Assembly: GCA_030167145.1 (NCBI GenBank)
Contig: CP126532.1
Coordinates: 1,770,001-1,802,000, forward strand
DNA from: Ktedonobacterales bacterium
Lineage (GTDB): Bacteria; Chloroflexota; Ktedonobacteria; Ktedonobacterales; JADMIN01
Direction of reading: 5' to 3'
Length of the DNA: 32,000 nt
How positions within the stretch are numbered: position 1 is the stretch's first letter; every line of letters starts with the position of its first letter. Below the pieces are notes generated by a model. The model was given only the letters and a program-made list of their open reading frames with translations, was not told where the DNA came from and did no database searches. The translations under genes were made by a program, and so were the position numbers. Below, in pieces: positions 23,181 to 27,832 of the stretch.

Positions 23181-23967
23181 GAATCGGCCACAAGTCACCA
23201 ATTGGGCAGACATTCCTCTCCGCCCGCGCGATGAAAATCGGCAGAATCGGCAACTCCCGTGGGGCGGACATTCGTGTCTGCCATGGTGCGAAAATCGGCA
23301 GAATCGGCAACGCCGGCAACTGCGCGTGCGCGAAATTGCGGCGAAAACGGCGAAAAATCTCCCGTTACTTCCAGCCAACTCCGGTCACATCTCCCCACAC
23401 CACCACGAAAATCGGCAGAATCGGCAACTGGCATCCCATCCAAAATCGGCCATTTCGGCCACTGCCCATCATACAAACATCAAAAATCGGCAGAATCGGC
23501 AACTCCGCGCCAACCTCCCTCGCGGGATTACCCGTGGCATTCATGCTACGATCTCGCTTTACCACCCAACCCGCCCTCCGCGCCAAATCGAAAAATCGGC
23601 AGAATCGGCAACGCCGGCCACTGCACGTGCGCGAAATTGCGGCGAAAACGGCGAAAATTCTCCAGCCATGTCCCCTCATCACCACCGCAAAAATCGGCAA
23701 AATCGGCAACTCCGCGCCAACCGCTCTCGCGGGATTACCCGTGGCATTCATGCTACGTCCTTCCCTCATCACCCATCCCGCCCTCCGCGCAAATCGGCAG
23801 AATCGGCAACTGCTTCAGTGGGGCAGACATTCCTGTCTGCCAGCATACGAAAATCGGCCACTTCGGCCACTGCGCCCATCCCGGCATTCATGCCCCACCG
23901 CTGTGCTCCGGCCATGTATGGCCGAGAGTGGCGCACGAATGCTGTGCTCCGGCCATGTATGGCCGAG
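23181..23967. repeat. Non-coding mosaic repeat array built on a 21-22 nt anchor (A/G)AAAATCGGCAGAATCGGCAAC
   Basis: Canonical anchors start at 23233, 23290, 23407, 23482, 23591, 23689 and 23791. Variant anchors (AAAATCGGCCAYTTCGGCCAC / GAATCGGCCAC) start at 23181, 23442 and 23849. Recurrent inter-anchor modules: hairpins at 23263-23282 and 23822-23841; a 50-nt module at 23312 and 23613; an 80-nt module at 23504 and 23711; and a 27-nt duplicate at 23900 and 23941. Confidence 0.85.
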
Positions 23968-24030: not shown

Positions 24031-26022
24031 GTGGCAGCCAGGAGTCACAGCGTGACAAACCAACGCACCAAGCGCAAACCAAACCAGCCGAACACAACCG
24101 AAGAGACGCCCACCGCAGCGCAACGTGCCCCCAGAGTCCCGCTCAAGCGCGTGCTCGCGCTGCTTCGCCCCTACTCCGGGCGGCTCGTCATTGCCGCGAT
24201 CCTCCTGGTCATCACCACCAGCCTCGGCCTCGTCTTCCCCCTGGTCATCCGCTCGCTGCTCAATACCATTCTCGTCCAGCACGACGAACACCTGCTCAAC
24301 CTGATCGTCGAAGGGCTGCTCATCCTCTTCGTCCTCCAGGCGCTGATCGGCGCCGTCCAAGGCTACCTCGTCACCGCCCTCGGCGAACGGCTCTCCTTCG
24401 ACCTCCGCACCCGCCTCTTCCGCCACCTCCAGATGCTCCCACTCAGCTTCTTCGACCACCGCCGCACCGGCGAACTCATGAGCCGCGTCACCAACGACGT
24501 CACCCTCCTGCAAACCTCGCTCACCAGCAACGTCCTGCCCATCGCCTCCCAGGTCGTCATGCTCGTTGGCAGCATCGCCATCGTCGCCCTCATCAACTGG
24601 CGTATCACCCTCGTCGCCCTCATCGTCACGCCCGTCGCCGTCCTCACCATCGGCCTCCTGGGGCGGCGCATTCGCCAGACCACGCGCGGCGTGCAGGAAG
24701 GGCTGGGCGACGCGGGCACCGTGCTCGAAGAAGCGCTCTCCGCCCCGCGCGTCGTCAAAGCCTTCACCCGCGAAGACTACGAAACCGAACGCTTCACCAC
24801 ACGCATGCGCGGCTCACTCCGCGCTGCCCTCCGCCGCGCCGTCGCGCAGGCGATGTTGGGACCGCTCAGCGGCTTCGTCGGCTTCACCGCCGTCCTCATC
24901 GTCATCTGGTTTGGCGGCCGCGAAGTGCTGGCCGGGCGGCTCACAGCGGGCGATCTCGTCGCCTTCATCTTCTACCTCTTCCTCATCATCAGCCCGCTCA
25001 TCTCGCTCTCCAATCTCTACTCACAGATTCAGGCCGCGCTGGCAGCGGCAGAACGTGTCTTCGAGCTATTGGACGAACCAGTCGAACCTGCGCTCACCAC
25101 AGCCTCCGCCGCGCCGCTCCCACCCTTGCCGCCACTCACCGGCCACATCGCCTTCGACCACGTCTCCTTCGCCTATCCCGCCGACCCGAACCACAGCGCC
25201 AGCGACTCCGCCCCCGCGCAAGCCTCGCCGCCCTCGCAGCCACGCCCCGCCGTGCTGCGCAACGTCACCTTCGCGGCGATGCCGGGGCAGGTCGTCGCCA
25301 TCGTCGGACCCAGCGGCGCGGGCAAAACCACCATGCTCAGCCTCCTGCTCCGCCTCTACGAACTGGATGCCGGCGCCATCCGCGTGGATGACACAGACAT
25401 CCGCAACGTGCAGGTGCGTTCACTCCGCGAGCAAATGGCCGTCGTCCCGCAGGAGCCAGCCATCTTCGGCGATTCGATAGCCGAGAACATCCGCTACGGA
25501 CGGCTGGACGCCTCCGACGAGCAGGTGCGCGCCGCCGCCGCTGCCGCCAATGCGCTGGCATTCATCGAACAACTGCCCGACGGCATGCGGACCATCGTTG
25601 GCGAGCGCGGCGTCAAACTCTCCGCCGGACAGCGCCAGCGTATCGCCATCGCCCGCGCGCTGCTCCACGATCCCCGCATCCTGCTGCTCGACGAAGCGAC
25701 CGCCGCGCTGGATAACGAATCCGAGGCGCTCGTGCAGGACGCCCTCAACCACCTGATGCGCGGTCGCACCACCCTCGTCGTCGCCCACCGCCTCACCACC
25801 ATCGAGCGCGCCGACCTGATTCTGGTACTCAACGACGGCGCGATAGTCGAGCGCGGCACGCACACCGAACTCCTGGCGCGCGAGGGCCTCTACGCACGCC
25901 TCTATACCCGCAACTTCGAGGACCTCGACAGCACGCCCTCCGTAGGGGCGTCCGGCGGACGCCCTTCCTCCGCCATGCAAAACGCCATTGTCACCGTACA
26001 CGAATCCCTCAGCAGCGGATAA
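24031..26022 (+). CDS. ABC exporter, fused permease/ATPase (MsbA/MdlB-type half transporter)
   Basis: N-terminal six-helix TMD (...LVIAAILLVITTSLGLVFPLVIR...). Walker A GPSGAGKTT, signature LSAGQRQRIAIARAL, Walker B ILLLDEATAALD, and an H-loop in TLVVAHRL. The GTG start at 24031 is uncertain. Confidence 0.9.
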   Translation: MAARSHSVTNQRTKRKPNQPNTTEETPTAAQRAPRVPLKRVLALLRPYSGRLVIAAILLVITTSLGLVFPLVIRSLLNTILVQHDEHLLNLIVEGLLILFVLQALIGAVQGYLVTALGERLSFDLRTRLFRHLQMLPLSFFDHRRTGELMSRVTNDVTLLQTSLTSNVLPIASQVVMLVGSIAIVALINWRITLVALIVTPVAVLTIGLLGRRIRQTTRGVQEGLGDAGTVLEEALSAPRVVKAFTREDYETERFTTRMRGSLRAALRRAVAQAMLGPLSGFVGFTAVLIVIWFGGREVLAGRLTAGDLVAFIFYLFLIISPLISLSNLYSQIQAALAAAERVFELLDEPVEPALTTASAAPLPPLPPLTGHIAFDHVSFAYPADPNHSASDSAPAQASPPSQPRPAVLRNVTFAAMPGQVVAIVGPSGAGKTTMLSLLLRLYELDAGAIRVDDTDIRNVQVRSLREQMAVVPQEPAIFGDSIAENIRYGRLDASDEQVRAAAAAANALAFIEQLPDGMRTIVGERGVKLSAGQRQRIAIARALLHDPRILLLDEATAALDNESEALVQDALNHLMRGRTTLVVAHRLTTIERADLILVLNDGAIVERGTHTELLAREGLYARLYTRNFEDLDSTPSVGASGGRPSSAMQNAIVTVHESLSSG

Positions 26023-26092
26023 TCATGCGAGTGAACAAGAATCCGCGCATTGATCGCGCACCGGTCTTGACCTTCCAGCCACTGGAACGTGT

Positions 26093-26668
26093 ATGCTGAT
26101 GGGCGAAGGGGGCAACAGCAACACTATGGCGACGCAAAACAGCGACATCATGCCAGTGTATGGCAACCGTGCGACGCGCAAAGCCGACGGGCACGACGAC
26201 CTCACCATTGGCCAGGTCGCGCGCCTGACCGGCCTCAGCGCCAAAACGATTCGCTACTACGAAGAGATCGGCCTGCTGCCAGCGGCAGGGCGGACGGCCA
26301 ACCGCTACCGCCGCTACGGGCAGGCCGACCTCAACCGGCTGCGGCTGCTGCAACGTATTCGCCTGCTGGGTGTGCCCCTTTCGGCAGCGCGCGACCTGCT
26401 GGCCGCCACCTCCGACGCACGATGCGCCGAGGTGCGCACTGATCTGCTGGGGCTGGTTGACCAGCGCCTGCAAACCCTCGACCAGGAGATCGCCGCGCTG
26501 CGTGGCCTACGGGACGCGGTAGAACGCTACTCGCGCGCACTAGCCGACTGCCATCCCGGCGAGTCCGAGCTATTCAGCTCATGTGATGATATACGCTGTG
26601 TCGTCGAACCAGACGACCTGCACTGTTGTGATGAGGAGAACCCGAATGCGCTATCAAGCTGCGTGTGA
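26093..26668 (+). CDS. MerR-family transcriptional regulator with a Cys-rich C-terminal region
   Basis: LTIGQVARLTGLSAKTIRYYEEIGLLPAAGRTANRYRRYGQADLNRLRLLQRIRLLG is the MerR HTH plus wing. A coiled-coil follows, then ...ADCHPGESELFSSCDDIRCVVEPDDLHCCDEENPNALSSCV*. The start is uncertain (Met codons at 26093-26150). Confidence 0.85.
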   Translation: MLMGEGGNSNTMATQNSDIMPVYGNRATRKADGHDDLTIGQVARLTGLSAKTIRYYEEIGLLPAAGRTANRYRRYGQADLNRLRLLQRIRLLGVPLSAARDLLAATSDARCAEVRTDLLGLVDQRLQTLDQEIAALRGLRDAVERYSRALADCHPGESELFSSCDDIRCVVEPDDLHCCDEENPNALSSCV

Positions 26669-26726
26669 GCCGTGTGATTGCCCGGACGGCGAGTGTTCGT
26701 GCGGGTGTGACTGCGGCTGCTGCTAG
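26646..26726 (+). CDS. Cys-rich mini-ORF (26 aa, 9 Cys); either a metallothionein-like peptide or the frameshifted tail of the MerR protein
   Basis: My manual translation in the frame shifted one nucleotide 3' of the MerR frame: ATG(26646) MRYQAACEPCDCPDGECSCGCDCGCC TAG(26724-26726). It overlaps the MerR stop (26666-26668) and is too short for the ORF track. Confidence 0.4.
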   Translation: MRYQAACEPCDCPDGECSCGCDCGCC

Positions 26727-26736
26727 CCCAATCTTT

Positions 26737-26765
26737 GGCCTCCTTCCCTAAGTGGGAAGGGGGCC
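26737..26765. terminator. Hairpin between convergent genes (possible bidirectional terminator)
   Basis: GGCCTCCTTCCC-taagt-GGGAAGGGGGCC: a 12-bp stem with one mismatch and a 5-nt loop. The flanking U-tracts are weak. Confidence 0.35.
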
Positions 26766-26797: not shown

Positions 26798-27043
26798 TTA
26801 CCCCAAGTCATCCTTTACCATTTCGCGCGCTTTGTTGAGTTGGTCCTGATAATCGGGCATAAACGGTTCGACAAGTGTACTTTCCAGGGTGGCAAGTATG
26901 TCCCAGAGCACTCGCTGTTCTGCTTGGTGATGGAGAAGTATGCTTTGCACACCCGTCTCCCTCCAGCGGGAAAGCAACTCGAAGAGTACCAACGCCTCTT
27001 CAGCGGTAAGCTCAATCGTGACCTTCTCGCCCGCTTCATTCAC
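26798..27043 (-). CDS. Small hypothetical protein (~81 aa); start uncertain
   Basis: The track ORF 26798..27250 overlaps the divergent gene at 27245, and its first ~70 codons look non-coding. A GTG at 27043 behind AAGGGTGGA gives VNEAGEKVTIELTAEEALVLFELLSRWRETG...KAREMVKDDLG. No family recognised. Confidence 0.4.
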   Translation of the reverse strand: MNEAGEKVTIELTAEEALVLFELLSRWRETGVQSILLHHQAEQRVLWDILATLESTLVEPFMPDYQDQLNKAREMVKDDLG

Positions 27044-27244
27044 GGTGAATCCACCCTTTTCTATTGGAGGCTTCTTGGCATTCAGCCTACCATGTGGCTG
27101 TCTCTGTATGCCTCTTCGCGCTGCTGTTGAACGCTGGCTCCGCGTAACCTCTTGCGTAGTATAGAGCAAGGTTCGCTTGTCTGAGGTAGCGATGACAGCG
27201 GCAGCCGGAACCTCACTCCGGCTGGATAAAGCGGGAGGGGCGGC

Positions 27245-27832
27245 ATGCAAGACTCAATCAGCGTAGGCAATGGCTCCGAGACGAACCGGCGCAAGCCAAG
27301 CCGCGCATGGCTCGCGCTACCACTGGTAGTCTTCGCGCTGGTGGCGCTGACCGTGGGCATGGTGGCGCAACAAACGGTCAGGTCGCCCTATGCCACACCA
27401 TTCTTCCATCTGATTTTCAGCGACACGCTGCACATGAAAGTCTGGCTGGTAACGGCGGCGCTCGTCTTCGGCTTCTTCCAGTTGCTGACGGCGGCGCGTA
27501 TCTACGAACTGCTGCGCTTCCCACCAAAGGGACGCTTCTATAACATCGTACATCGCTGGTCAGGGCGCATCGCCATCGCGCTGACGCTGCCGGTTGCCTA
27601 TCACTGCATCTTTTTGCTCGGCTTCGACAAGTCCGACGCCCGCGTGTATATCCATTCACTGCTCGGATCAAGCATCTATGGCGCATTCCTGGCCAAGGTG
27701 CTGATCGTGCGTGTGAATCGCTTCCCCGGCTGGGCGCTGCCCATCGCGGGCGGCCTACTCTTCGCGATTCTCTTGGGCCTATGGCTCACCTCCGCCGCGT
27801 GGTTCTTTGGCACACACGGCGTCGGTCTGTGA
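27245..27832 (+). CDS. Multi-pass membrane protein with conserved-looking His residues (function unknown)
   Basis: 195 aa with RBS GGGAGGGG. About five hydrophobic helices: WLALPLVVFALVALTVGMV, VWLVTAALVFGFFQLLTAA, IAIALTLPVAYHCIFLLGF, LLGSSIYGAFLAKVLIV and LPIAGGLLFAILLGLWLTSAAWFF. Confidence 0.7.
   Translation: MQDSISVGNGSETNRRKPSRAWLALPLVVFALVALTVGMVAQQTVRSPYATPFFHLIFSDTLHMKVWLVTAALVFGFFQLLTAARIYELLRFPPKGRFYNIVHRWSGRIAIALTLPVAYHCIFLLGFDKSDARVYIHSLLGSSIYGAFLAKVLIVRVNRFPGWALPIAGGLLFAILLGLWLTSAAWFFGTHGVGL

Follow-up and report, generated by a model that had tools for sequence, protein, structure and literature searches.

The stretch of DNA analyzed here (32,000 nucleotides of contig CP126532.1 from a Ktedonobacterales bacterium, referred to as a whole as the window) contains a gene for a MerR-family metal sensor, merR, and, overlapping its 3′ end, a very short cysteine-rich open reading frame (ORF) that is the main subject of this report. 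The frame of merR is open from 26093. The encoded protein has the C-terminus SSCDDIRCVVEPDDLHCCDEENPNALSSCV, which in a longer excerpt of the tail reads HCCDEENPNALSSCV, and the final codons AGC TGC GTG TGA give the ending SSCV. Relative to merR, the +1 frame opens at GTG 26583 and contains the ATG at which the short peptide would start, and the two genes share 23 nt. A first-pass annotation of this DNA had reported a metallothionein-like Cys cluster encoded out of frame across the MerR stop. Every element of that report, namely the sequence, the stop, the +1 frame, ATG 26646, and the 26-aa peptide, was confirmed, as was the remark that removal of G26663 would fuse both frames. In addition, two signals absent from it were found, a Shine-Dalgarno sequence (GAGGAG) in front of the short ORF and a MerR-type promoter in front of merR (Table 1).

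The cysteine content of the short ORF is exceptional for the window, which has a G+C content of 60%. Across all six frames of the 32 kb, Cys density peaks at the micro-gene with 9 Cys in 20 residues, and the next-densest stretches count 7 (a stretch broken up by stops) and 5. The density of the micro-gene is far above chance. Its start codon and Shine-Dalgarno sequence both lie inside the 3′ end of merR on the same strand, which is the arrangement of an overlapping, translationally coupled gene pair, and the Shine-Dalgarno sequence is formed by Glu-Glu codons of the acidic MerR tail. Owing to this placement and the overlap, translation of the micro-gene is probably coupled to translation of merR. 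The segment from ATG 26646 to TAG 26726 is very probably an independent translated gene, with a predicted product of 2.6 kDa.

Table 1. Features of the merR locus in the window
Feature	Position	Strand	Details
MerR-type promoter/operator	26067..26097	+	-35 TTGACC 26067-26072; 19-bp spacer; predicted -10 TATGCT 26092-26097
Operator dyad ACCTTCCAG-N3-CTGGAACGT	26070-26090	+	spacer plus the last bases of the -35 box
merR-family metal-sensor gene	26126..26668	+	probable start ATG 26126; stop TGA 26666-26668; Pfam domains, CueR similarity
Shine-Dalgarno GAGGAG of the micro-gene	26632-26637	+	8 nt 5′ of ATG 26646 (9 nt by another spacing convention)
Cys-rich micro-gene	26646..26726	+	26 codons, MRYQAACEPCDCPDGECSCGCDCGCC, 9 Cys; ATG 26646, TAG 26724-26726
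Stem-loop, probable terminator	26737..26765		12-bp GC-rich stem; -30.4 kcal/mol, z = -3.07

Orthologous loci (numbered L below; regulator proteins are numbered P) were collected by a scan of species-representative genomes, a metagenome scan with a 48-sequence MerR alignment, and ten exact-protein look-ups. Close orthologs were those with a MerR ~50-95% identical, and all frames were scanned around the MerR stop. They come from Ktedonobacterales and from soil metagenomes, and those with names are Ktedonobacterales. At the end of merR, about 25 distinct loci have a Cys-dense ORF that encodes 21-43 aa, 8-11 of them Cys, and each of these ORFs has its own ribosome-binding site and start, which supports the earlier suggestion of an overlapping, translationally coupled, metallothionein-like micro-gene. 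Examples of the encoded peptides are MKLFAAACECGCPCDCPDGDCTCDCGCC, MNTAQHEPCDCPCGTCPCGCGCCGC, MEPCDCPCGQCPCGCGCCGCC, and MKNNSTCCQGPDCCPCPECGGCDCGCC. The N-terminus is variable, and the C-terminal core is conserved with the consensus EPCDCPCGxCPCGCGCCGC. In every copy a Shine-Dalgarno sequence (GAGGAG, AGGAGG, or AAGGAG) is located 6-9 nt before the start codon, which is ATG, or GTG in L001-L003 and L166. Most loci have the ORF in the +1 frame of merR, and L093, L095, and L168 have it in the +2 frame. The overlap with merR amounts to 68 nt (L001-L003), 47, 26, 23, 20, 17, 13, 11, or 8 nt, and L093 and L095 have a 14-nt gap instead. A stop codon is present in the Cys frame immediately 5′ of the Shine-Dalgarno sequence in L003. 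The variable frame, the variable overlap or gap, and the dedicated signals match an independently initiated gene and cannot be explained by a fixed +1 shift.

The association with this regulator is strict. A profile hidden Markov model of the peptide was run on 1.04 Mb of fetched DNA, divided from stop to stop into 28,352 segments. It matched only directly 3′ of this MerR subfamily, and its sole match in the window was 26544-26723. In ~140 loci whose MerR/CueR genes are more distant, that place has no Cys-dense ORF. Of the distant loci, the Cys-density scan picked out L059 alone, where an ORF that ends GQDCGCGCCSSAE and includes a masked base lies ~266 nt past a distant Chloroflexota merR (ORF end 4701); the peptide profile does not match it. 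In L174 (5425-5676), two Cys micro-ORFs follow one merR in tandem, MDKKPAQADSGCCPHGLCPCQCPICSGR and then MTAYNVPCECPCGQCPCDCPGGCCLGCGC, the second being fully intergenic with its own AAAGGAG.

Nucleotide substitutions were used to examine which frame is conserved. The regulator P0001, 95% identical to the window MerR, occurs in two independent assemblies (ENA, L081; Logan, L082) with identical stop and +1 ORF. In the comparison of the window with L081, conservation spans the -35 box to the Cys-ORF stop, and both flanks are unalignable. From the MerR stop to that of the Cys-ORF, the two sequences differ by three third-position changes, GAC>GAG (Asp>Glu), TGT>TGC (synonymous Cys), and TAG>TAA. 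Just 5′ of ATG 26646 there are two differences that are synonymous for MerR and non-synonymous in the +1 frame, and this pattern argues that selection switches frame at about that ATG. Among L001, L002, and L003, codon changes in the Cys frame number 15 synonymous and 6 non-synonymous, and third positions account for most of the differences. Their Cys-rich core keeps the same amino acids with synonymous differences only, whereas the same bases, read on in the MerR frame, encode different amino acids. In these three loci, all from metagenome-assembled genomes (L001 4491-4574, L002 4461-4544, L003 1536-1619) the MerR frame is without its usual stop and extends 68 nt over most of the Cys-ORF, ending EEQLDLLPGARLLPVSGVRRL. 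Since the changes are synonymous for the peptide and non-synonymous for MerR, this MerR extension looks like a passenger. The Cys codons across the family comprise 110 TGC and 74 TGT; both are used freely, and therefore it is the residue that is conserved, not the DNA. These codon patterns reflect purifying selection in the Cys frame.

The micro-gene and merR are likely co-transcribed from the MerR-type promoter, a single transcript being inferred from the positions of this promoter and of the hairpin behind the Cys-ORF. The pattern TTGACC-N19-TAnnnT with ACCTTCC-N7-GGAAGGT was found 5′ of merR in 27 of 30 loci (17 of 20 close loci and all of another 10). Metal-responsive MerR promoters are recognized by a strong palindrome within a spacer of 19 or 20 bp according to Permina et al. 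(PMC1526738), who give the CueR signal as ACCTTCCC-(5)-TGGAAGGT and the HmrR signal as ACCTTCCAG-(3)-CTGGAAGG, with a 19-bp spacer in both. The window has such a palindromic operator between its -35 and -10 boxes, and the operator is of the ACCTTCC...GGAAGGT type found in the CueR/HmrR subfamily. A standard sigma-70 promoter scan of the window gave no match, as expected of a scan that accepts only spacers of 16-18 nt. The promoter also bears on the start of merR: ATG 26093, which would give the longest ORF, lies inside the predicted -10 hexamer, so that translation probably starts at ATG 26126. The public record of P0001 is called from the ATG equivalent to 26093, and N-termini in gene calls of this MerR subfamily may be over-extended.

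The stem-loop starts 11 nt past the Cys-ORF stop, between the convergent Cys-ORF and orf150 (26798-27250, minus strand). Strong hairpins are found 3′ of the Cys-ORF in nearly all orthologous loci and are followed by T-runs in several (L091, L093, L095, L169). The hairpin core in the window (26742-26760) is an exact CCTTCC-N7-GGAAGG, the same core dyad as in the merR operator, which itself has one mismatch in the window. This dyad could be a second regulator-binding site or a chance occurrence in a GC-rich stem. As a second operator it was rejected, as the exact dyad recurs after the Cys-ORF only in L081 (+53 from the Cys-ORF stop) and L168 (+27), and the other loci have unrelated hairpins; a terminator is therefore the simpler reading. 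The conserved module thus comprises ~700 bp with the predicted promoter/operator, merR, the Cys-ORF, and the hairpin terminator. A transcription unit of 24031-26726, as suggested in the first-pass annotation, is probably wrong, since the conserved promoter lies between the upstream exporter gene and merR.

The regulator has an N-terminal helix-turn-helix and a coiled-coil dimerization helix, and matches Pfam PF00376 (MerR), PF13411 (MerR_1), and PF09278 (MerR-DNA-bind). Its best solved relative is E. coli CueR (E ~3e-13), and structures of MerR and CadR also match. Four Cys are invariant across 48 MerR orthologs, namely C111, C153, C164, and C169 (191-aa numbering). The window MerR was aligned with Tn501 MerR and E. 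coli CueR. In this alignment C111 pairs with the helix-start Cys of MerR and with Ser77 of CueR, C153-H154 with the Cys-His of MerR, and C169 with the last loop Cys, while C164 is carried by a 7-residue insertion. By the same alignment the metal loop reads C153-x10-C164-x4-C169; the combination of a C112-x7-C120 loop with Ser77 that characterizes Cu(I) sensors was not found in the window MerR, and an invariant Cys stands at the Ser77 position. In this family, a Ser at this position reportedly goes with +1 ions and a Cys with +2 ions (Changela et al. 2003). The Cys at the Ser77 position, the MerR-like Cys triad, and the extra Cys suggest a sensor suited to Hg, Cd, Zn, or Pb. The operator, of the kind seen with CueR or HmrR, points to Cu(I).

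Features shared with CueR and HmrR are the helix-turn-helix with its dimerization helix and the 19-bp spacer with ACCTTCCAG-N3-CTGGAAGG(T), which is identical to the published HmrR signal. A Cys-Cys tail at the C-terminus is also frequent: many of the orthologous regulators end in an acidic stretch with terminal Cys-Cys (...EEDCCV, ...HACCT, ...HVCC), and E. coli CueR ends ...GCCHHRAG (CCHH tail). In contrast, the loop is C-x10-C-x4-C instead of C-x7-C, and the Cys in place of Ser77 is as in Hg/Zn/Cd/Pb sensors. Moreover, what is regulated is the regulator's own operon, which encodes a thiolate peptide and no P-type ATPase or multicopper oxidase.

The peptides resemble metallothioneins in size (26 aa in the window, 21-43 aa in orthologs) and in composition, for which ~30% Cys in CxC/CC/CxxC motifs and few or no aromatic residues are typical. 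Pooled peptides contain 32.5% Cys (in CxC, CC, and CPC motifs), 16% Gly, 10% Pro, and 2.5% aromatic residues, the latter mostly in the variable N-termini. Searches for relatives were negative. Eight family members had no match in Pfam and NCBIfam at E up to 10, and a PDB profile search with the peptide found no metallothionein, the only hit being a chance match to Evasin-1 (E = 0.41). Among 5.8 billion clustered proteins, a query headed by a 43-aa member had no relative at E up to 0.01. An exhaustive phmmer search of 1.84 billion representatives with the window's 31-aa form gave 0 matches, although a single short, low-complexity query is weak proof of absence. The peptides do not match the models or solved members of the known bacterial metallothionein families (SmtA/BmtA and MymT). 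By exact look-up of five peptides, just the 30-aa one from L173 was found in public records, as an unnamed singleton, and this is the only one of the ~25 copies that was called as a gene. No description of a MerR-coupled Cys micro-gene in Chloroflexota was found in the published literature. From composition and context, a metal-sequestering, metallothionein-like function is, on balance, the better guess for the peptide, which would probably rank among the smallest bacterial metal-binding peptides.

Among known systems, MymT of Mycobacterium tuberculosis, which is controlled by the CsoR-type repressor RicR, is comparable in that it is a small Cys-rich bacterial peptide overlooked by annotation and placed under a metal-responsive regulator. 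The ORF of MymT (53 aa, 4.9 kDa) had not been annotated; copper raises its expression, and its product is predicted to take up as many as six Cu(I) (PMC7558416). The peptide described here showed no detected sequence similarity to it, is half its size, overlaps and is predicted to be co-transcribed with the gene of a MerR-family activator, and belongs to another lineage (Ktedonobacterales, Chloroflexota). In cyanobacteria and pseudomonads, SmtA/BmtA and SmtB also form a minimal metal-buffering module consisting of a dedicated sensor and a metallothionein. SmtB is an ArsR-family repressor that is transcribed divergently, whereas the regulator here is a MerR-type activator in the same operon. 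SmtA has ~56 aa, a zinc-finger-like fold, and His ligands (PMC7558416). The present peptide matches neither that Pfam family nor PDB 1JJD. Fungal Cu-metallothioneins of ~25 aa (Neurospora crassa, Agaricus bisporus) and the mammalian metallothionein beta-domain with its 9 Cys are similar in size (~25-30 aa), Cys number (7-9), CxC motifs, and a core without aromatic residues. However, these are eukaryotic, and no homology was detected by the PDB profile search, so that the resemblance is compositional and may be convergent.

The explanation that we favor, with fair confidence, is that the micro-gene is the second cistron of a self-contained sense-and-sequester unit and encodes a metal-inducible, metallothionein-like peptide. 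In this unit, the MerR-family sensor would bind metal and remodel the promoter with its over-long 19-bp spacer, as in the general MerR mechanism. The remodeled promoter would raise transcription of merR and the peptide gene, and the coupled internal ribosome-binding site would yield the 2.6-kDa peptide. With ~33% Cys and almost no aromatic residues, the peptide could bind several soft-metal ions in a cluster of thiolates, much as one domain of a metallothionein does. Once metal is sequestered, its free level would fall and the sensor would be reset, which would amount to a minimal feedback loop. We lean slightly towards a wider statement, namely that the ~25 loci represent a previously undescribed metallothionein family whose members (21-43 aa, 8-11 Cys) would be the smallest in bacteria, encoded in a two-gene cassette with its own MerR sensor, with the ribosome-binding site embedded in conserved Glu-Glu codons of the regulator tail, and confined to Ktedonobacterales. 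Gene callers would have missed it because the peptide is below their length cut-off and overlaps merR. In a bolder version, the peptide and the Cys-Cys tail of the regulator would exchange metal, so that the peptide tunes the set-point of the sensor.

Several points weigh against this explanation. The term metallothionein-like draws on the composition and motifs of the peptide and on the link of its gene to that of a metal sensor, and there is no detectable homology to a known metallothionein. Translation of the peptide and its binding of metal are predictions. The two clues to the metal disagree, with a copper-type operator on one side and a MerR-type Cys triad for a divalent soft metal on the other. 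Conservation before the MerR stop is partly owed to merR itself. Finally, L086 (merR stop 2450) and L088 (merR stop 702) have the same MerR subfamily and promoter/operator and no Cys-ORF, and there the gene of a membrane permease with a CSCGGG motif follows; with a permease in place of the peptide, the regulator can evidently serve other outputs.

Two other explanations treat the Cys-rich sequence as a part of MerR, and both had been offered in the first-pass annotation. If a 1-nt indel, either a sequencing or assembly error or a recent mutation, had cut a Cys-rich tail from a longer MerR, a one-base deletion near 26663 would restore a continuous ORF, as it indeed does, and in-frame tails of this kind exist: a sub-branch of regulators with 200-256 aa (P0089, P0090, P0092, P0066, P0079) has a Cys-rich C-terminus (...CCEDDCCACCA), with the motif CCxDDCCACCA in P0089, P0092, P0066, and P0079. 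Nevertheless, this idea was rejected and is scarcely credible, as the independent ENA and Logan assemblies share the stop and the frames, the frames are separate in all ~25 orthologs including the divergent ones, with three using the other frame or a gap, and most orthologous MerR proteins terminate at about the same position. Two loci with in-frame tails, L096 (merR tail end 930) and L170 (3850), carry in addition a separate Cys-ORF of 42-43 aa starting MRYDAV.... Programmed +1 frameshifting near the MerR stop, which would add the Cys-dense segment as a C-terminal extension, was likewise rejected and is very improbable. It would be in keeping with the +1 relation in most loci, the GTG instead of ATG start in L001-L003, and the GAGGAG 5′ of the junction, because internal Shine-Dalgarno sequences stimulate +1 shifting in prfB. 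However, the criteria of a prfB-type shift (slippery codon, close Shine-Dalgarno sequence, fixed +1) do not hold across the loci: no prfB-like slippery codon precedes the stop, the Shine-Dalgarno sequence is at initiation spacing from the start codon and 28 nt from the stop, and the sequence of the would-be shift site is unconserved between loci. In addition, a +1 shift is of no use to the three loci in the +2 frame, two of them with a gap, and L001-L003 have no stop in frame 0 at the junction.

Other explanations accept the micro-gene and assign it a different role. The short, Cys-rich peptide with a variable N-terminus and a conserved core resembles the leader/core layout of a ribosomally synthesized and post-translationally modified peptide, and a fused ATP-binding cassette (ABC) exporter is encoded directly 5′ in the window (24031-26022). 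Hence, the peptide might be the precursor of a modified and exported natural product or a chalkophore-like chelator secreted by that exporter. We regard this as improbable. The exporter, which had been emphasized in the first-pass annotation, is found 5′ of the cassette, among the loci with readable flanks, only in the window, its near-identical relatives L081/L082, and L166, and it was rejected as part of the system because this synteny is not conserved. No maturase, protease, or exporter is conserved beside the module; the eight loci with annotated flanks have unrelated neighbors (carbonic anhydrase, peptidases, DinB, transposases, and others). Moreover, a hairpin after the exporter gene and the conserved promoter separate it from merR, and the N-terminal segment has 3-10 residues in most copies, which is too short for a typical leader. 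A radical-SAM gene, together with a methyltransferase gene, lies just 5′ of merR in L174, and radical-SAM is found there in no other locus. Alternatively, the peptide might mainly be a partner of the regulator, that is, a metallochaperone or metal buffer that supplies the MerR sensor with metal, removes it, or sets the sensor's threshold, and not a bulk sink. In line with this role, the peptide gene is strictly tied to a single MerR subfamily, for which no further target gene is conserved, the probable translational coupling would imply near-stoichiometric production, and the acidic regulator tail with its frequent Cys-Cys end could exchange metal with the peptide. We still consider it rather unlikely as the main role, given that in L086 and L088, which lack the peptide, the sensor serves other outputs; sensor-tuning and sequestering roles are also not mutually exclusive.

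The surroundings of the cassette show some further features. Downstream of it, the window encodes a DUF6529 protein and sigma-54 (assigned by Pfam). In L081 (1036-1125), the sigma-54 gene follows almost directly after the cassette, and the window has ~1 kb extra (26798-27832), consisting of orf150, which belongs to no family, and the DUF6529 gene (27245-27832). This difference is a recent insertion or deletion between close strains. Upstream of the exporter gene, a gene-poor stretch of ~800 nt (23224-23967) repeats a ~22-nt motif, AAAATCGGCAGAATCGGCAAC(T), nine times with irregular distances of 34-117 nt, and it also contains duplications of 72-144 nt and a perfect 27-nt direct repeat (23900-23926 and 23941-23967). 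An array of clustered regularly interspaced short palindromic repeats (CRISPR) is ruled out there by the irregular spacing, and the stretch may be a cluster of dispersed repeats or of repeats resembling miniature inverted-repeat transposable elements.

A metal-inducible, metallothionein-like peptide as such is a known kind of molecule; the novelty lies in its sequence family and in how the operon is built. PMC7558416 lists only SmtA/BmtA and MymT as sequence families of metallothioneins in bacteria. If the sense-and-sequester cassette proposed above is real, a third and much smaller family with another regulatory logic, in which a MerR activator is co-transcribed with its effector from overlapping genes, would widen the view of how bacteria buffer soft metals. 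Ktedonobacterales are abundant in soils, and their metal biology has hardly been studied. The case also shows that functional genes of ~25 codons escape annotation. With its compact size of ~700 bp, the cassette could serve as a part for biosensors or bioremediation.

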